Origin: a virus
Strand: one strand, 5' to 3'
Length of the DNA: 57,867 bases
IMG/VR virus record: IMGVR_UViG_3300028534_000013
Span: 1-57,867 of that record
The translations under genes were made by a program, and so were the position numbers. The notes beneath the pieces were generated by a model. It was not told the origin of the DNA. It did not search any database and saw only the letters and a list, made by a program, of their open reading frames with translations. Shown here piece after piece: positions 40,896-49,724 of the stretch (positions within the stretch are counted from its first letter, which is position 1; each line of letters opens with the position of its first letter).

Positions 40896-41102
40896 TTAGG
40901 AAAGAAGTCGTCTAAAATATTCGTCATTTTGTTCTATTGTATAAAAATCTATTATTACGTTGTCTCCTATTTTGCTATATAATTCTTTTATGTATTCTTT
41001 TGCTTTTTTCTTAACTTTAAAAATACCTACAACCTCTTTTTCATTATAAACATTCTCAACATAAACTATATATATTTTTTTAAAATCTGTTTCGATTAAC
41101 AA
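40896..41102 (-). CDS. Hypothetical protein coupled to rep
   Basis: IYIVY..VVGIFK.KKKAKEYI. Confidence 0.55.
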   Translation of the reverse strand: MLIETDFKKIYIVYVENVYNEKEVVGIFKVKKKAKEYIKELYSKIGDNVIIDFYTIEQNDEYFRRLLS

Positions 41103-42157
41103 TTTTCATCCATTACTTTTATGATTTTAGAGTTTAATTCTGTAAATTTGTTTACATCGAATTTATATAAGTCAAAATAACATTTACCTTCTTTTAAGAA
41201 ATCATAATAATCTTCTATCTTTTTTGCAAACATATACACGTTATTGTATATTTCCATGCTTTCATCTGAATCTATAAAAACTTCTTCTCCGTTAGTAGTT
41301 TTGGCAAAAATTTTACCGTTAACGTCTATTCCATACCAGACAACTTTATTGTTTAACTTCCCGACGATGAAATATTTTCCAGTTCCTGAATAAGTTTCAC
41401 GTAAAAATCTTACAAAGTTTTTAATGTTTTTAACTTCTGGTTTGTCATATCTGTTGTTTTTGTTGTCTGTTACATGAAATATAACATCATACACCCTGTT
41501 TCCATCAGTTTCTGTTTCGTATGTAACAAATATATCTGTATGTTTGTTTATTTCTTCTATTGCAGGCTCCAGAAGTCTTCTTTTAATGTCATAGAAATCA
41601 TATTTATCGGAACACATAAAAAAATCTCTAAGCTCATCTATTGAATAAGATATTTCTCTTTTGTATTTTTTTTGTATTTCGTATCTATTTTTTAATTCTT
41701 CAAACAATCTCAACGAATAAGGTTTTCTTAGGTTTTTCATATTTTTTATATGATATTTAAGATAATTGTTCTTATACTCTATCAGTATAGACAACATATC
41801 TTTGTCTATATAAAACACTATATCTTGTCTTTTTTTATATATCACCTTATCTACGAAGTGTAAAAACATTTCTTCGTTATCGTTTTTAACTATTATGACT
41901 TTAGACATTAACTCTTTTATTGCTTTTTTAATTTGTTTATATATTACACTTATATCTTTATCAAAAAGATTAAACAGCTCATCTTTTTTTATAGAGTACA
42001 TATAAACATCTTCTTCTGTTTTTGTAACAACAATATTCAATAATTGAATTGCGTAAATAGACAGGTCATATTTGCTCTTCATTATGATTGAACTTTTTTT
42101 TATGCTAAACTCTTCATCAAGCTCAATTACCACTATATTTTCTTCATTTTTTTTCAT
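41096..42157 (-). CDS. repB: Plasmid replication initiator, Rep_3 (RepB) family
   Basis: SKYDLS..QLL, YKQIKKAIKELMSKVI, LRKPYSLRLFEEL, SIDELR, IKRRLLEPAIEEINKHTD. Confidence 0.9.
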   Translation of the reverse strand: MKKNEENIVVIELDEEFSIKKSSIIMKSKYDLSIYAIQLLNIVVTKTEEDVYMYSIKKDELFNLFDKDISVIYKQIKKAIKELMSKVIIVKNDNEEMFLHFVDKVIYKKRQDIVFYIDKDMLSILIEYKNNYLKYHIKNMKNLRKPYSLRLFEELKNRYEIQKKYKREISYSIDELRDFFMCSDKYDFYDIKRRLLEPAIEEINKHTDIFVTYETETDGNRVYDVIFHVTDNKNNRYDKPEVKNIKNFVRFLRETYSGTGKYFIVGKLNNKVVWYGIDVNGKIFAKTTNGEEVFIDSDESMEIYNNVYMFAKKIEDYYDFLKEGKCYFDLYKFDVNKFTELNSKIIKVMDENC

Positions 42158-43039: not shown

Positions 43040-43948
43040 TTAAACTCCGCCTATTGTTATCATTATGTTTCCGTCTTCATCTTTAATCATTTTAACTGAG
43101 CTACTAGGTATTTGGTCTTGAACCGTATCTCTTCCGTCTTTATATTTAGCAAAAGCGTCAAATACTTCCAAATAATTTTTTGGGTTAGTGTCTGTATGAC
43201 TATATCTTGCAACTTTATCATTATATCCTGCTATTTCAACAAAAGTTTCTATTCCCATTTTTATAAATTTAAACGAAACTCTGTCTATTTTTGGCTTTTT
43301 TCCTTCACGATATTTAAACTTAACTCTATTATCTGAAATTTTTTCAATAGTTTTTTCGTCTGTTATGTTTTCTATCTGCGCTCCAAAAGAAGGGTCAAAA
43401 TAAATTTCAACAGATTCTATTTCCTCGTCATCTTTTTCGCATGTTTCGTTTTTTTGTTCTTTAGATGCTGTTTTTTGTAAACCGTCATTGCTTTCATTGT
43501 TGTCTTTTTGTGTTTTTACATTATGTTCATCTTTTTGACCACCATCTACACCAACAGCTTTCATTGCAACTATCTCTTGATTTTCCATAGCTTCTTTCTG
43601 TTCGTTGGTTAAATCTATTTTAATAGAATATACAGAAGGGTCCAAAGAAAGCTCTTCATTGTCAGTTACAAATTTGCCGTTTTTATAAGATGCAATCACA
43701 TATCTTTCATACGGAAATCTAAGTATTACTAAATCATCATCGTTTAACAATTTGCCAAGTTTATCTACAGCGCTGTTAGGTTTAAGTGTAGCTTTTGGGG
43801 CAGCAGTTCCGTTTACTATAATTCTACCATCTGTATCATATAGTGCAACTTTTCCGTTAAAATCAACCATTATAAAATTTTCATCCACAGACAACACCTT
43901 ACCTGTACCTAAGAAATCACATTTTACTTCTTGTCCTTTTACAAACAT
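43040..43948 (-). CDS. Hypothetical protein with N-terminal SH3/Tudor-like beta domain
   Basis: FVKGQEVK...GTGKVLSVD...VDF; one KTAS. Confidence 0.7.
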   Translation of the reverse strand: MFVKGQEVKCDFLGTGKVLSVDENFIMVDFNGKVALYDTDGRIIVNGTAAPKATLKPNSAVDKLGKLLNDDDLVILRFPYERYVIASYKNGKFVTDNEELSLDPSVYSIKIDLTNEQKEAMENQEIVAMKAVGVDGGQKDEHNVKTQKDNNESNDGLQKTASKEQKNETCEKDDEEIESVEIYFDPSFGAQIENITDEKTIEKISDNRVKFKYREGKKPKIDRVSFKFIKMGIETFVEIAGYNDKVARYSHTDTNPKNYLEVFDAFAKYKDGRDTVQDQIPSSSVKMIKDEDGNIMITIGGV

Positions 43949-43958
43949 TAATTCTCCT

Positions 43959-44153
43959 TTATCCTATTCTTCTTGTTCTTGTTGACATTCTAAATCCTGA
44001 ATGCCCTCTGGTTCCTATTGATAATCTCATTCTTGCTTTTTCAGAAGGAGTTCTTTTTTTAGATAAAAAACCATAACCTTCTTTTTCAAGAGGATTGCAA
44101 TCGTTATCAACTTCACATTTTAACATTTTTTCGGCAGATATTTTGTATAACAT
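43959..44153 (-). CDS. Small basic protein
   Basis: AAGGAG RBS, TATAAT upstream. Confidence 0.6.
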   Translation of the reverse strand: MLYKISAEKMLKCEVDNDCNPLEKEGYGFLSKKRTPSEKARMRLSIGTRGHSGFRMSTRTRRIG

Positions 44154-44212
44154 TGTTTTTTCTCCTTTTTTTTGTTTTAATTATACAACAACTTTAAAAA
44201 AAGGTCCAAAGT

Positions 44213-44947
44213 GTGATTAATATTGTAGTTTCGAGTAACCTTAAAACAGATTTAGATTATTTATTGCTAAGGTACACCATTCGGAGTATAGAAAAAAATT
44301 TTAAAGAATCTGATTATATAATACACGTTTTCTCAAACTTTAATCCAGGATTTTTAAAAAACATAATATACCACAAGACGCATTTCGAAAAATCTCACGA
44401 TGAACTTTTCTCTGTACACAACTCTTCAATTGTAAGTGCTGCATCAAAATTTAAAGATTTTATATTTATTCAAAGCGGAAACATAATAAATGACAAAATA
44501 ACATCTATGTACACAAAGAACGCAAAAGGGTTTAAAAAAGATAAAAACTTAATTGACGAAATAAGTGATGTTTATTCTAAATACGCATATATGACATATA
44601 TTGAAATGTCGACAAACTTTGGGCACGATGAAACTATTATTACAGATTTGTTTTCACCTCAATTTATAAAATCTAAAAATTTCAATAAAATGATGGACAG
44701 TTTTAGAACAGTTCAAACAAACAATTATAATGCTTTAATGATATATAGAAATTTTTTTAAGGCGGTAAAAATTACAAAAATAAACAAAATGAACAGTTTT
44801 ATAGTTGATGAAGACACTTATTATTCTTTTATGAAAAAATTTAAAAAAGATAAAGTGTTTTTCATTGAAAAATATGGGTTAAAAAACCCTATTGTAAAAA
44901 TGTATATAGAAAAAGAATTTGGGGATAAATGCTCTTTTGAAAATTAA
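44213..44947 (+). CDS. Stealth-family (CR2-like) protein, degenerate
   Basis: LLRYTIRSIEKNF..IHVF...PGFL resembles ELRYSLRS..P.WL; NDD motif absent. Confidence 0.5.
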   Translation: MINIVVSSNLKTDLDYLLLRYTIRSIEKNFKESDYIIHVFSNFNPGFLKNIIYHKTHFEKSHDELFSVHNSSIVSAASKFKDFIFIQSGNIINDKITSMYTKNAKGFKKDKNLIDEISDVYSKYAYMTYIEMSTNFGHDETIITDLFSPQFIKSKNFNKMMDSFRTVQTNNYNALMIYRNFFKAVKITKINKMNSFIVDEDTYYSFMKKFKKDKVFFIEKYGLKNPIVKMYIEKEFGDKCSFEN

Positions 44948-45201
44948 TGCTTATCTGTAACACCTAAATACTTCTCAGCAGTTCTTAAACCTGCAAGCAC
45001 TCCTCCTGTGATTAAAATATCGTTTAATCTTGATATTACCTCAGGCGGCAATTCTATATGTATCCCAAATCCTGACAACACCACATAAGCAATAGGGTAT
45101 ATAACATATATCAATACTACAGATGTAACTATTGCTGCAGCTAATGTTGGCCTCCATGTAGGGTTTATAAAATTTACTATTTTTTCTACTATAGGGTTCA
45201 T
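44944..45201 (-). CDS. Holin, GTA_holin_3TM family
   Basis: WRP motif, hydrophobic helices, GLRTAEK C-terminal signature. Confidence 0.8.
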   Translation of the reverse strand: MNPIVEKIVNFINPTWRPTLAAAIVTSVVLIYVIYPIAYVVLSGFGIHIELPPEVISRLNDILITGGVLAGLRTAEKYLGVTDKH

Positions 45202-46244
45202 TTTGTTTCCTTTTTAGCTGGAACGGTTATTTTTATAATAGTTCCATTTTCGTCCGAACTAACTATTTCTTCGTTTCCATTTGCTGAATTTATTATTTCT
45301 TTACACAAATACATTCCAAACCCTCTTCCATCGCCTTTAGTGCTTTTGCCTAAATCCCATATATTACCAACTACGTCAGCCGGTATTCCTTCTCCGTTAT
45401 CTATTATATAAAACGTTAACATTTTGTTTTCGTAATCATACGATATGTATTTTATTTTAACTATTGAGGCGTTTGCGTCTAAACTGTTTTGTATATGGTT
45501 GTTTAAAACATTTAGCATTTCAACAGGCTTCATTGTTGTTAAATAGAAAAATTTAAGCTCTTCAGAAATATAATAATCAAAATTATATTTGTTAAACATG
45601 CTAAACATTGAAAAAACGTTGCTTGCTATATTGTATAGAGAGTCTTGGTTTTTTAGTTTGTTGTCTTTTATGCTTTTTATCATTCCTAATGTTTCAAACA
45701 TGTTGTTTATTGAGTTCTCTATAAGAGATGTGTTTGTTTGTATGTCCTGTATAAGCTTAACTTCTCCGCTACAATATCCTGTTAATGTACAGTTTTCACA
45801 ATCTTTTGTCTGTTCGCTGCATCCGTAAACTATTCTGTCTATATTTCTTTTTCCGTTTTTCTTTGCGGACGATACTAGAGTTTTTATTATTTTGTTATTT
45901 TCTTCAAACGCATTTCTTACAGCTATTAAAGGGCTCATTAATTGATGGTCTATATTTTGCATTAACGAATATGTTATCTTGTATGATAAAATATTCTTTT
46001 CTTTGTTTAAATATGTTTCAAATGCTATTTTAAAAAGGTTTGATATTTTATATAGAAAAACAAGAAAACTTGAAACAATAAACAATGATTTTATCATCCA
46101 CATCATATGCCCTTTTCCACAACAAGGACATCTGTTCAAATATTCAAACAAAAGTTCTATCAGGAATATTGACGCTATAAAAAACAGTGTTATCTTGATG
46201 GCTTCATGTATGTGTTTTTTTGATTTATTGTAACATCTAAACAT
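45198..46244 (-). CDS. Membrane sensor histidine kinase
   Basis: 2 TM; H-box DHQLMSPL; N-box NHIQNSLDA; DNGEGIP; STKGDGRGFGM. Confidence 0.9.
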   Translation of the reverse strand: MFRCYNKSKKHIHEAIKITLFFIASIFLIELLFEYLNRCPCCGKGHMMWMIKSLFIVSSFLVFLYKISNLFKIAFETYLNKEKNILSYKITYSLMQNIDHQLMSPLIAVRNAFEENNKIIKTLVSSAKKNGKRNIDRIVYGCSEQTKDCENCTLTGYCSGEVKLIQDIQTNTSLIENSINNMFETLGMIKSIKDNKLKNQDSLYNIASNVFSMFSMFNKYNFDYYISEELKFFYLTTMKPVEMLNVLNNHIQNSLDANASIVKIKYISYDYENKMLTFYIIDNGEGIPADVVGNIWDLGKSTKGDGRGFGMYLCKEIINSANGNEEIVSSDENGTIIKITVPAKKETK

Positions 46245-46245
46245 G

Positions 46246-46947
46246 TCAATCCTTAAATAGGCATTCTATAAAAAATTTTGCCCTATCATCAAAGTAAGGC
46301 GTTTTTGTTAACACATTGTTTTTTAAATAATCTTCACCCAATAGTTTTATTATTTTTTCTTTTTCTTTTGAAAAGTGATTATCAAGATAGCATCCGGTAA
46401 AAATACATGTTTTTACGTTAGGGTTTATTTTGTGTAAATAATACACAAGGTCTATTCCGTCCATTGTATATTTTCTTCCGTTTTTTATAACAGATTCTCC
46501 GAATACAATATCTACTATTGCGTAATCAAGAGAACATAATGTTTTGTCGTAATTATCACATGTTTTTTGTATTCTATATGGAGCGTAACTATCTACTATG
46601 GGCCTTATTTCAACGTCTTCATAGCTGAGTTTTACTGAGTCTATAAGTTTCAAAGTTTCAATATCTGCTGATATGTCAACATTTTTAGTTAGTATTCTTT
46701 TTAAATCTTTTAAGACTAACTCTGTTACACCCTTGTTGTCATCAGTTACTAAAATATGCTTCTTGTCATAATCTTTAAACCCGCAAAAATAACTAAGGTC
46801 TTCCCATTTTTTTAGTTTTTCAAACGTTTCTTTTTGAAGCTCTTCTTTAATTTTGGATATTTCAAATATATCTTCTTCTGTTATTTCTGATTTGTTTTTA
46901 TTTGAAAAAATATTAACCAATTTGCTTTTTATGTTTTTAAGGTTCAT
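46246..46947 (-). CDS. Response-regulator receiver protein without output domain
   Basis: ILVTDD, AIVDIVF, MDGIDL, IFTG, LTK. Confidence 0.8.
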   Translation of the reverse strand: MNLKNIKSKLVNIFSNKNKSEITEEDIFEISKIKEELQKETFEKLKKWEDLSYFCGFKDYDKKHILVTDDNKGVTELVLKDLKRILTKNVDISADIETLKLIDSVKLSYEDVEIRPIVDSYAPYRIQKTCDNYDKTLCSLDYAIVDIVFGESVIKNGRKYTMDGIDLVYYLHKINPNVKTCIFTGCYLDNHFSKEKEKIIKLLGEDYLKNNVLTKTPYFDDRAKFFIECLFKD

Positions 46948-47411
46948 TTTGTTCCTTTTACGCTTGAAGTTATGTCTTTTACGGCTTTTGTTGATTGAAT
47001 CATTGCCTTTTCATCTAAATGGTAAAAAATCATTAAACCACCAATTAAAAGTAAAGCACCCAATACTACTGAAAAAGTTATTTTAAACGGAGAATCGGTA
47101 AAAAACTGGTACCATTTTCTTTTTGTGTCTATTTTGTTTTTATCATATAAAATATAAATATATTCTTGTTGTATGTCGATAATGCACCATGTCATTTCAG
47201 AAATTGTGAGTTTTAATTTTTTCTGTTCTGTCTCTATCTTAGAGGCTAAAGTTATTATAAAATCACTAAGTTCTTCTATATTTTTAGCTTTGGTTAAATT
47301 ATAATATGTTTGCAAGTCGCTGCTTGACATAGTGTCATTGTGTAATTCTTTTAAAACATTTTTCAGTTTTTCAATATATTCTTTTAGTTTAGCATCTTTA
47401 GCTGAAGACAT
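46944..47411 (-). CDS. Coiled-coil protein with C-terminal TM helix
   Basis: First gene of TCS-holin operon; ITFSVVLGALLLIGGLMIFY. Confidence 0.7.
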   Translation of the reverse strand: MSSAKDAKLKEYIEKLKNVLKELHNDTMSSSDLQTYYNLTKAKNIEELSDFIITLASKIETEQKKLKLTISEMTWCIIDIQQEYIYILYDKNKIDTKRKWYQFFTDSPFKITFSVVLGALLLIGGLMIFYHLDEKAMIQSTKAVKDITSSVKGTK

Positions 47412-47435
47412 TGTTGGCCTTTGATTTTTTTAACA

Positions 47436-47441
47436 ATTATA
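47436..47441 (-). promoter_or_regulatory. -10 box TATAAT for TCS-holin operon
   Basis: 25 nt upstream of ATG 47411, T-rich upstream. Confidence 0.45.
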
Positions 47442-47495
47442 ATAAATATTTTGAAGGTGCCAAAAAAAATAAAAAAAAGAGCGGAAAAAAAGACG

Positions 47496-47921
47496 TTAGA
47501 AAGGAATCTTATCTTCGTCTATTTTATCGTCATATTCGTAATTATTTTGTTGGTAGCTCGAGTTTTCTTGGTAGCTTTTTTCATTGTTTACACCGTTCTT
47601 ACTCTTTTTTGACATAATTTTTACATCTGATGCAAGAACATACATTTTACTTCTGTTGTTTCCGTTTTTATCTTTCCATGTATCTATTTTTATTTTTCCA
47701 GACAACTCTATCAAATCGCCTTTATCTGCGTAATTGTTGATATAATCTGCGTTATTACCAAGAATTTTAACAGGAATAAACTCCGTTACTTCCTGATAAG
47801 TTCCTTTAACTTTTTCATTATCAGATACGGCTATATTTATTTCAAGAATGCTAAATCCGTTTGTTGTTTTTGTTAATTCTTTTTTGGAAGATATTCTTCC
47901 TGATAGACATACTTTGTTCAT
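47496..47921 (-). CDS. ssb: Single-stranded DNA-binding protein
   Basis: MNKVCLSGR, KGDLI..GKI...WKDKNG, C-terminal DKIPF. Confidence 0.95.
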   Translation of the reverse strand: MNKVCLSGRISSKKELTKTTNGFSILEINIAVSDNEKVKGTYQEVTEFIPVKILGNNADYINNYADKGDLIELSGKIKIDTWKDKNGNNRSKMYVLASDVKIMSKKSKNGVNNEKSYQENSSYQQNNYEYDDKIDEDKIPF

Positions 47922-48313
47922 TTTTGTTCCTTTATTATTTGTTTTAATGTTTTGTCTTTATCGCTTACCAATAATGACAAGCAAGACCATACGTCGCTTA
48001 TTTTAATTAGACTTTCAGCTATACTTAACTCATCTGAAATTAATGATACTAGATTTTTTATAGCCTCTGCTTCAGGATTTGAAAATGATGAGTTTTCGTT
48101 ATAAAAAACATCATATAAAAGAGCCGGGGAATGCGCTCCTTTTACTAAGGTTAATTTTATTACATTAACGAGCATCTTGATTTCATCAAAGTCATCTTCA
48201 GCCATTTTTAAAGCAGCTTCTTTTAACGCTAAAGACGCATACAATTTAAAAGATGATTGGTCAACTTTTGGTTTAATAACTTCAAAAGCGTTAATTAAAT
48301 CATTCATTTCCAA
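47918..48313 (-). CDS. Hypothetical helical protein
   Basis: Coupled between groEL-like gene and ssb. Confidence 0.65.
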   Translation of the reverse strand: MEMNDLINAFEVIKPKVDQSSFKLYASLALKEAALKMAEDDFDEIKMLVNVIKLTLVKGAHSPALLYDVFYNENSSFSNPEAEAIKNLVSLISDELSIAESLIKISDVWSCLSLLVSDKDKTLKQIIKEQK

Positions 48314-49724
48314 CCTCCACGTTTACTATATATGAAATATTATTTAAAAGAATGGCTAATTCTGATGATGATTTTAACACCTCTTCAATTGTTAAAGCCG
48401 AATCGTACACGTTTTTTGCTTTATCAACAGGAAATCCGTTTTTTTCAATCTTATTTCTTATCGCTGAAAAGATTTCAACAAACATGCTTGCGTCAGATGT
48501 TATATCATTAAGTTTTAAGTAACTTTCTCCAGCCCCTGGCATTGCTCCGTATATTTTTGATTTGTAGTAAGAATGCAATGCGTCGTCAACTCTGTCTCTT
48601 ATTTCTTTTGCTTTGTTCTCTATTGACGTTCCTATTATTATCTTTACCACTTCTCTTTCCAGTATTGCCAATATTGCCCTGTACTTAGCAGCTTCATAAT
48701 CGTCTTTTGAATCACGGAGCATTGCTTTGTATTTCTCTATAAGTTTTAAATCTTTTTCGCCTTCTATATCCTCAACAGTTAAATTGTTATCATAAAAAAA
48801 TGCTTTTTTAGGAGGAACAAAATCATCAATATTAACATCTGACAAATATGCTCCATAATCAATTCCGCTAATTGGAGCATTTAAAGATGATGATAATATT
48901 TTAACAATGTCAACATTTTTCATAGTATCATCACCTCCCACAACAACAGGCAATATATTCATTACACCTTGAAGGTGATTTATGGATAAAACGCCTATTG
49001 CGTCATCACTGAATCCATTTGAAATAATGATTAAATTTTTATATCCATATTCTCTTGCTTTCTCAAGAAGCTCAACGCACTCTCTTTCAGTTTCAACGGT
49101 CCCAGCATTGCATACTATCAATGGAGAAGACATTTTGATTTTGCTTTGATTTTCAAATACTTCAGCAGCCGTTTTACACCTTATTAATACGCCATTTATT
49201 ATTTCAACTTTTGATTTTGAGTTAAGCTTTGTTTCAACAACTATATTATCTGATGTTGATAATTTTAGGGCCGAATTAATTAAATTGGCTAAATTTTTGT
49301 CTCCTGATACGGCAGTAAGAACAATTTTATCTTTGATTTTATCAATATCTTTTATTTTGATTTTATCAATCTTATTAACCATTTCTTCTATTTTTGAAGA
49401 TAACTGTTCTTCTGTAATTTGATTGTTTTTTAACGCATTTAACATTTTTTCAGCCAATACAATCGTTGATGTGGTTCCGTCCCCAGCTCTCCTTAATACA
49501 GATTCTGAAGCTTCTTTTATAACTGTTACCACATTGTTTACATACGGGTTGTTGCTTTTTATAAGCCTTAAACATGAAACACCGTCTTTTGTTGTATGAA
49601 CATTGTGTTCATTTCCTATTACAACGTATTTCCCTGATGGCCCTAAAGTCTCAGAAACGAATCCGCTTATGTCTGACAAAATTTTTTCTATTGCAGTTGG
49701 TTTTGCAAAATTGTACATTTCCAT
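48300..49724 (-). CDS. groEL: Divergent GroEL-like chaperonin
   Basis: TLGPSG, TKDGVS, AGDGTTS, DRVDDAL, PGAG; 474 aa, no GGM tail. Confidence 0.85.
   Translation of the reverse strand: MEMYNFAKPTAIEKILSDISGFVSETLGPSGKYVVIGNEHNVHTTKDGVSCLRLIKSNNPYVNNVVTVIKEASESVLRRAGDGTTSTIVLAEKMLNALKNNQITEEQLSSKIEEMVNKIDKIKIKDIDKIKDKIVLTAVSGDKNLANLINSALKLSTSDNIVVETKLNSKSKVEIINGVLIRCKTAAEVFENQSKIKMSSPLIVCNAGTVETERECVELLEKAREYGYKNLIIISNGFSDDAIGVLSINHLQGVMNILPVVVGGDDTMKNVDIVKILSSSLNAPISGIDYGAYLSDVNIDDFVPPKKAFFYDNNLTVEDIEGEKDLKLIEKYKAMLRDSKDDYEAAKYRAILAILEREVVKIIIGTSIENKAKEIRDRVDDALHSYYKSKIYGAMPGAGESYLKLNDITSDASMFVEIFSAIRNKIEKNGFPVDKAKNVYDSALTIEEVLKSSSELAILLNNISYIVNVEVGNE

Follow-up and report, generated by a model that had tools for sequence, protein, structure and literature searches.

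A conserved kinase, receiver and tail-anchored protein trio in large low-GC phages, often encoded beside lysis-type membrane genes

Why would a phage encode a histidine kinase and a receiver directly beside a holin-like gene? The question is raised by four minus-strand open reading frames, here named A, B, C and D in the order of transcription, that lie in a 57,867-nucleotide (nt) stretch of viral DNA (IMG/VR record IMGVR_UViG_3300028534_000013; the window), which forms the first 57.9 kb of a 176,653-bp phage record rated complete by CheckV, with a GC content of ~28-36%. Lysis timing sets phage burst size and fitness, and the known lysis controls are holin self-timing and the antiholin-based lysis inhibition of T4-like and N4 phages. 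A preliminary description of the window regarded the four genes as a candidate sensory lysis switch, in which the phosphorylation state of the receiver gates the holin or a decision between lysis and plasmid-like maintenance. Here we find that the unit which is conserved and selected is A-B-C; lysis genes often adjoin it but can be dispensed with. We give an even chance to the reading that this module is a membrane phosphorelay tuning lysis through protein contacts, its link to lysis being drawn only from synteny.

The kinase is encoded by gene C. Its ATP-binding domain matches HATPase_c (PF02518) at E 1.5e-13, and the protein matches the PDB kinases ThkA and HK853 at E 4e-17 to 3e-14. Two transmembrane (TM) helices, joined by an outside loop of ~10 amino acids (aa), are followed by the dimerization and histidine phosphotransfer (DHp) domain and then by the catalytic and ATP-binding (CA) domain. 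H100 in the motif NIDHQLxSPL is invariant, as are N249, N253, D282, G284, G308 and G310 of the N, G1 and G2 boxes across nine relatives, and the H-box of the distant kinase in locus L026 reads HHELNTPL. The description of C as an intact phage-encoded histidine kinase with His100 is borne out by these catalytic residues. By the features tested it belongs to class I (HisKA-type), having a GHKL ATP-binding domain with its boxes and a phospho-accepting His at the start of a DHp helix; the DHp is divergent, carries a four-Cys insert, and gives no Pfam HisKA match at E ≤ 0.1. The insert lies between the DHp helices (window 45771-45821), with two of its Cys invariant and the others nearly so, and the short outside loop carries CPCC. 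Four further Cys (C55, C130, C138 and C186) are invariant in B, and the Cys clusters of the two proteins suggest a redox, metal or Fe-S input.

The product of gene B is a divergent stand-alone receiver of the CheY type, as judged from its predicted structure. It has no Pfam Response_reg match at E ≤ 0.1, and its family profile reaches PDB receivers only at E 0.01, as befits a very divergent receiver with insertions. The structural model, with a predicted local distance difference test score (pLDDT) of 86, shows the five-stranded alpha/beta receiver fold, and a Foldseek search with it returned 147 PDB matches at E ≤ 1e-3, the top ones all receiver domains with a target TM-score of 0.6-0.72. Residues ~60-233, which match receiver domains only, form the CheY-like domain, which contains two insertions, and helices occupy residues 3-44 of the preceding 60-aa extension. 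The active-site residues D69, D70, D146, T184 and K215 are invariant among relatives, and the DD pair and the phospho-acceptor D are retained in 17 more distant ones. A search with the B profile among 1.8 billion representatives found relatives of 200-285 aa in 165 clusters, and their active-site residues agree with those of B. The earlier designation of B as a receiver-only regulator holds for the receiver fold and the lack of a DNA-binding output, but not in the strict sense, given the helical N-terminal extension.

The trio A-B-C is complete in every locus that is not cut by a contig end (17 of ~20 lineages, down to ~25% identity); L017 (B-C-D), L018 (C-D) and L022 are fragments cut in this way. 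A distant set, made up of eleven IMG/VR loci from the B-family alignment together with L026, has an A-like gene, a B-like gene and a kinase gene, always in that order. All of the relatives are large low-GC phages, and close relatives are few. Scans of IMG/VR with single proteins yielded one contig only, 89% identical, searches of GenBank phages with the DNA region, B and C yielded no relative or generic kinase-domain matches only, and a scan of bacterial genomes with the B profile yielded no match. A kinase match in a viral contig of 50% GC (L031) is an ordinary OmpR-type pair, unrelated to the trio. Instead of the kinase, receiver and holin (B-C-D) on which the preliminary description centered, the unit that is kept is thus A-B-C, and D is absent beside the trio in L008, L010/L011, L026 and others.

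A recognized lysis gene abuts the trio in 11 of the 19 informative lineages, in four gene orders. By a chance estimate of ~4 lysis genes among ~250, a random neighbor would be a lysis gene in roughly 3% of cases, and the expected synteny of signaling pair and lysis gene is therefore upheld. In the first order, A-B-C-D, the kinase is followed by D (window/L002, L004/L006, L009, L012/L016/L027, L017 and L018). In the second (L010/L011), an inner-membrane spanin (i-spanin) gene overlaps the kinase stop and is followed by the outer-membrane spanin (o-spanin) gene and a 187-aa gene; this block is orthologous to one at 63.3-64.4 kb in the genome of the window phage (49% identity and E 3e-30 for the o-spanin, 54% and 3e-66 for the next gene). 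In the third, a full-length phrog_3427 holin gene lies directly upstream of A-B-C, in L036 (7e-29) and in L040 (1.4e-28), the latter a complete 161-kb genome. In the fourth (L034), genes for a TM protein and two spanins directly precede A-B-C. Among the three distant records that hold a phrog_3427 gene, it touches the trio in two; the L033 record has a short phrog_3427-like gene ~50 kb from the trio. In L008 the trio is followed by a gene for an unrelated soluble protein, and in L026, L038, L039 and L042 the kinase is followed by genes for a ~90-aa secreted protein and a ~416-aa outer-membrane-like protein. This gene pair (L026:6825-8296 and L038:6820-8360, and likewise in L039 and L042) is conserved; both products have a signal peptide, the larger one (~415 aa) ends in Phe like outer-membrane barrels do, and neither protein belongs to a Pfam or PHROG family. 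On the 185-kb contig of L026, at least seven small neighbors (L026:2981-9355) end in YPELFI, FPEYFI, PEDFI or PERLI and make up a paralogous family of unknown function.

The third member of the trio, A, consists of a helical cytoplasmic part (residues 1-105), one TM segment (~108-133) and a short outside tail. Searches of Pfam and of PDB sequences assign it to no family, it lacks a conserved His, and profile comparison shows no relation between it and the DHp of the kinase. The family shares the motif [S/D]-x3-T-x-[Q/N/H]-K, in which Thr61 is kept in 16 of 19 lineages. In the one complex prediction that was run, that of B with A(1-106), the interface score ipSAE was 0.70 (0.63, 0.70 and 0.72 in the separate runs) vs 0.02 for the best of three controls; the mark used for this score is reached by 58 of 80 solved complexes and by 2 of 110 mismatched pairs. 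The runs had at least 84% of their contacts in common, with a partner pLDDT of at least 63. On B, the predicted interface comprises residues 69-77, 147-150, 184-190 and 214-219, which are the loops round D146, T184 and K215, together with residues 22-37 of the N-terminal helices; among the residues that take part on A are S57, T61 and K64, which are conserved. The cytoplasmic helices of A are therefore predicted to dock on the phospho-acceptor face of B. Docking on this face is not usual for typical downstream effectors. It is the mode of kinases, phosphotransferases, auxiliary phosphatases and the pseudokinase DivL (PMC4211667). Because A is predicted to occupy this face, the likely partner of the receiver is A rather than the holin; the earlier idea that the receiver binds the holin has nothing pointing to it.

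Gene D encodes an N-terminally shortened, remote relative of the GTA_holin_3TM/phrog_3427 family, and it is a candidate holin or holin-like partner on that ground. The window protein matches phrog_3427 (annotated as holin) at E 4e-5, covering positions 73-138 of the 141 in the profile, and all six D-family members examined match it, the best at 2.8e-9. In hhalign comparisons, D aligns with residues 60-142 of the 152-residue annotated holin of Paracoccus phage ParMal1 (probability 92%, E 7e-7), and with residues 64-129 of the 136-residue full-length holin of L036. The ParMal1 holin gene directly follows the endolysin gene of that phage, unlike D, which is not adjacent to an endolysin gene. D is the only PF11351-like gene in this genome, and a protein-atlas look-up with it gave sub-threshold leads only. 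A head-to-tail duplicated form of D, 161-169 aa long, occurs in L004:6758-7258, L006:6759-7259, L017:1785-2294 and L018:989-1474, and both halves keep the motifs WRP...YP...GG..LR(T)xEK. A 244-aa gene on the plus strand (44213-44947; phrog_7999, unknown function) is convergent with D, with an overlap of 4 nt at the stop of D; it has the same position in L002, L004, L012 and L027 and is absent where D is absent or moved.

The four genes are tightly packed behind a single promoter-like site, at the positions previously assigned to them (Table 1). A and B overlap by ATGA, B and C are separated by 1 nt, and C and D overlap by ATGA (4 nt). The overlap of the kinase stop with the start of D, regarded earlier as translational coupling, is present, but overlaps are common genome-wide (73 of 194 same-strand neighbor pairs, 22 of them by ATGA), so that it represents ordinary packing and no special coupling. 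The promoter-like site lies within the 84-nt gap before A, with TATAAT at 47441-47436 and TTGGCA 16 nt upstream, and agrees with the consensus at 11 of 12 positions. It is the top sigma-70-like match in a 5-kb scan (43500-48500), in which the number of such sites is at chance level (33 vs 28.5 ± 5.3). A -10-like TAnnnT, mostly with extended TG, is found ~25 nt before A in 10 of 10 aligned relatives. Because this element is kept while the rest of the spacer has diverged, a conserved transcription start before A is plausible, and the putative promoter of the preliminary description stands. The -10-like word TT[G/A]YTAYNAT occurs at window 37847, 40624 and 47445 and at genome 60767 and 70436, each time 23-29 nt before a start codon, these being the starts of a 256-aa gene, an 830-aa gene, gene A, a 580-aa RNA-polymerase piece and a 212-aa gene, which may form a promoter class; the total in the genome is not above that in shuffles (44 vs 52).

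Table 1. Features of the cassette and the endolysin candidate (window coordinates)
Feature	Position	Strand	Basis or remark
Promoter-like site TTGGCA-16-TATAAT	47436..47463	-	sigma-70-like match ~25 nt before gene A
Gene A, 155 aa, tail-anchored helical protein	46944..47411	-	orphan family; predicted receiver partner
Gene B, 233 aa, stand-alone receiver	46246..46947	-	fold and invariant active-site residues
Gene C, 348 aa, histidine kinase, two TM	45198..46244	-	HATPase_c and invariant boxes
Gene D, 85 aa, membrane protein, candidate holin or holin-like partner	44944..45201	-	remote GTA_holin_3TM/phrog_3427 member
Endolysin candidate, Peptidase_M15_3, 130 aa	56918..57310	-	PF08291 and phrog_894

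How might such a module work? All four proteins are membrane-bound or membrane-tethered, and none has a DNA-binding domain. In the scheme that we propose, C would phosphorylate itself on His100, from which Asp146 of B would receive the phosphate. Lacking a DNA-binding part, B would act by contact, with its phospho-acceptor face and N-terminal helix docking on the cytoplasmic helices of A as predicted. A would be either the output element read by B, as DivK is read by DivL, or an auxiliary protein by which B is held or dephosphorylated. The trio would be co-transcribed with a lysis-type membrane gene, which is D in this phage and the spanin genes or a full-length holin gene in relatives, and would most likely influence whether these membrane proteins are triggered, or at what time, according to a membrane or redox cue that arises in the infected cell. 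The phosphotransfer, the signal, a contact of A with D or with a spanin, and the effect on lysis are steps that we only infer. From the preliminary interpretation the link to lysis is thus kept, by way of synteny, while direct gating of the holin by the receiver gives way to A as the better partner candidate.

Several observations weigh against this scheme. Eight lineages have no recognized lysis neighbor (L008, L026/L038/L039/L042, L032, L033, L035, L037 and L041), and the cassette of the window sits among replication-type genes, which include those for a single-stranded DNA-binding protein (SSB; 47496-47921), a GroEL-like chaperonin (48300-49724), a Rep_3 initiator (41096-42157) and a primase. 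D can also stand apart from the trio, as in the L033 record and in L015, where D comes right after an RNA-polymerase gene and is followed by a 69-aa gene, a 318-aa gene and a Rep_3 block, as behind D in the window. L015 is from the same metagenome as L010-type contigs, and may belong to one phage with them, to judge from the shared sample. A single inversion from the kinase to the polymerase gene converts the D layout into the spanin layout, with a lysis gene after the kinase in both, and suffices to explain the difference; an inverted repeat for programmed inversion was not found at the junctions of kinase with D and of RNA polymerase with spanin. Since the relatives, all large low-GC phages, share synteny, part of the adjacency is inherited. 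As to the proteins, A alone folds poorly (pLDDT 57), and the A-B score may lean on the model's memory of solved kinase-receiver complexes. D scores 14 bits against PF11351, with a cut-off of 24.8; all six family members match this profile below threshold, with a best E of 0.0024. D also lacks the N-terminal third (~60 residues) of full-length family members (~135-150 aa) and has only one strongly hydrophobic segment (16-49), with a second that is weak. The earlier label of a 3TM-family holin is accordingly retained for the remote family relation but not for the full domain or for three clear helices.

The alternative that deserves the most attention, though we consider it rather unlikely, is that the trio senses the redox or envelope condition of the infected cell to serve some end other than lysis timing (superinfection exclusion, envelope remodeling or pacing of development), with lysis genes as mere neighbors through the clustering of membrane or late-acting genes. 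It would account for the secreted and outer-membrane-like proteins that take the place of lysis genes in L026, L038, L039 and L042, for L008, L032, L033, L035 and L041, which have no lysis neighbor, and for the position of the window cassette behind SSB and GroEL, and it agrees with the redox or metal sensing suggested by the Cys clusters of C and B. What it explains poorly is that holin or spanin genes lie against the trio in four independent orders, which is hard to obtain by chance. A different role for D, that of an accessory subunit in the membrane that serves the input of the kinase and resembles holins by ancestry only, draws on the architecture of C. Intramembrane-sensing kinases have two TM segments with a minimal loop and depend on accessory membrane proteins such as LiaF, and C is built in this way; in addition, D lacks the N-terminal 60 residues of full-length family members and is tandemly duplicated in some lineages. 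In L010/L011, however, spanins fill the slot of D, and the trio of L036 and of L040 adjoins a full-length member of this holin family. Lysis genes as a class fit this better than one co-sensor, and there is no other holin candidate beside the endolysin gene; we regard a LiaF-like D as improbable.

The mechanism first proposed, in which the phosphorylated receiver binds D directly and gates its triggering, seems to us very improbable. B is indeed without an output domain, and the kinase gene is followed at once by that for D, but D exposes few residues outside the membrane (only ~15 N-terminal and ~10 C-terminal), the trio occurs without an adjacent D in many lineages, and the conserved third partner is A, which is predicted to lie on the active face of B. 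Scarcely credible is the proposal that a choice of lytic growth or plasmid-like maintenance is made by the module: there is a Rep_3 replicon 3 kb downstream, and D moves with the Rep_3 block in L015, but the module has no DNA-binding output, the trio is apart from Rep_3 in L010/L011 and in distant relatives, and nothing ties B or A to replication proteins.

Three known systems come nearest in function to the lysis-tuning phosphorelay proposed here. One is the lysis inhibition of phage T4, in which the holin T is controlled by its antiholins, RI and RIII (PMC11413866, PMC8385771). In T4 an envelope signal delays or permits lysis, and both cases would involve phage-encoded sensory control of a lysis membrane protein by contact, with a small membrane-anchored partner. 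T4 differs in that no phosphorylation is involved and RI senses directly in the periplasm, whereas here a kinase and a receiver would intervene; no sequence relation was found between A-D and T4 RI, RIII or T. In staphylococci and streptococci, the LytSR two-component system is encoded with the LrgAB/CidAB genes (PMC2996381, PMC3507848), likewise beside holin-like membrane genes, with ties to the state of the membrane and to lysis of the cell. This system belongs to bacteria and its kinase spans the membrane with many TM helices, and LytR is a DNA-binding transcriptional regulator, in contrast to the viral receiver described here, which has no DNA-binding domain. The release of gene transfer agent particles by Rhodobacter depends on a histidine-kinase relay, with the RcGTA holin and endolysin (rcc00556/rcc00555) under the CckA phosphorelay (PMC3423380). 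This holin is of the family (PF11351) of which D is a remote member; in RcGTA, however, the relay is host-encoded and works through CtrA-dependent expression, and the holin is full length and beside the endolysin.

Two precedents bear on the predicted docking. Auxiliary receiver phosphatases are exemplified by CheZ, CheX and Spo0E, and the HisKA phosphatase motif is E/DxxT/N. Like these, A has a helix with a Thr and an amide (S57, T61, Q63 and K64) that is predicted to lie over the phospho-aspartate pocket of B; A differs in being membrane-anchored and without sequence relation to them, and catalysis by A is hypothetical. In Caulobacter, the single-domain receiver DivK docks its phospho-acceptor face on the helical, non-phosphorylatable, kinase-like surface of DivL, which passes the information on (PMC4211667). 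DivL is a complete pseudokinase in which Tyr replaces His, and A is a 155-aa tail-anchored orphan; the two are alike only in the mode of docking predicted for A.

None of T4, LytSR-LrgAB and RcGTA/CckA joins a virus-encoded kinase/receiver pair with an output by protein contact. In the literature, we found no description of a phage-encoded kinase/receiver pair tied to lysis, and a survey of jumbo phages mentions only a receiver variant unlinked to kinases (PMC7824862). We tentatively suggest, at somewhat less than an even chance, that large low-GC phages carry a dedicated phosphorelay that gates lysis membrane proteins post-translationally, with the receiver docking on a His-less membrane adaptor. 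If true, this would be a compact, portable sensor-to-lysis switch and a signal-controlled lysis clock, mechanistically unlike the known holin/antiholin timers, and would give a phage a new way to read its host or the surrounding population before bursting the host. The docking predicted here, between a receiver and a small protein with a tail anchor, also offers a testable output mechanism for the many output-less receivers of phages.

The other lysis genes of this phage lie elsewhere. The endolysin candidate (PF08291 at E 3.7e-25; phrog_894, endolysin, at 7e-41) is 9.5-12 kb from the cassette, and its neighbor genes encode no TM segment. Endolysins had been placed about 12 kb away in the preliminary description; this candidate agrees with that, while a second endolysin is unconfirmed. 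The second may refer to a 196-aa protein (genome 57627-58217; L014:1628-2218) that has an apparently cleavable signal peptide and, in the motif AIAWKES, a resemblance to lytic transglycosylases; its one match is to phrog_600 (unknown function, 3e-31), and none is to Pfam. Amidase_2, Amidase_3, Phage_lysozyme and SLT have no match in the genome, and the genes at 31-40 kb have no lysis match.

A spanin pair is encoded on the plus strand at genome 63310-63886 (L029:1310-1886), after the RNA-polymerase piece and a GGDEF protein. The i-spanin has an N-terminal TM segment and a coiled coil ending in TTITI, and is overlapped by the gene for an o-spanin lipoprotein with a lipobox, which is the architecture of a two-component spanin; for this pair and its L010/L011 orthologs, the matches are to phrog_1026, 739 and 5151 at 2e-5 and to phrog_9385 at 1e-4. 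The lysis genes are thus scattered over three loci, with the spanins far from both the endolysin candidate and D. The 184-aa GGDEF protein (genome 62544-63098; L029:544-1098), encoded between the RNA-polymerase piece and the spanin pair, matches PF00990 at 6.7e-18 over the first 93 of 161 profile positions. The 211-nt gap between it and the i-spanin gene (genome 63099-63310; L029:1099-1310) reads like the startless tail of an HNH-type nuclease (CxxC...H), an apparent remnant that looks to be located at one breakpoint of the inversion separating the two genome layouts.

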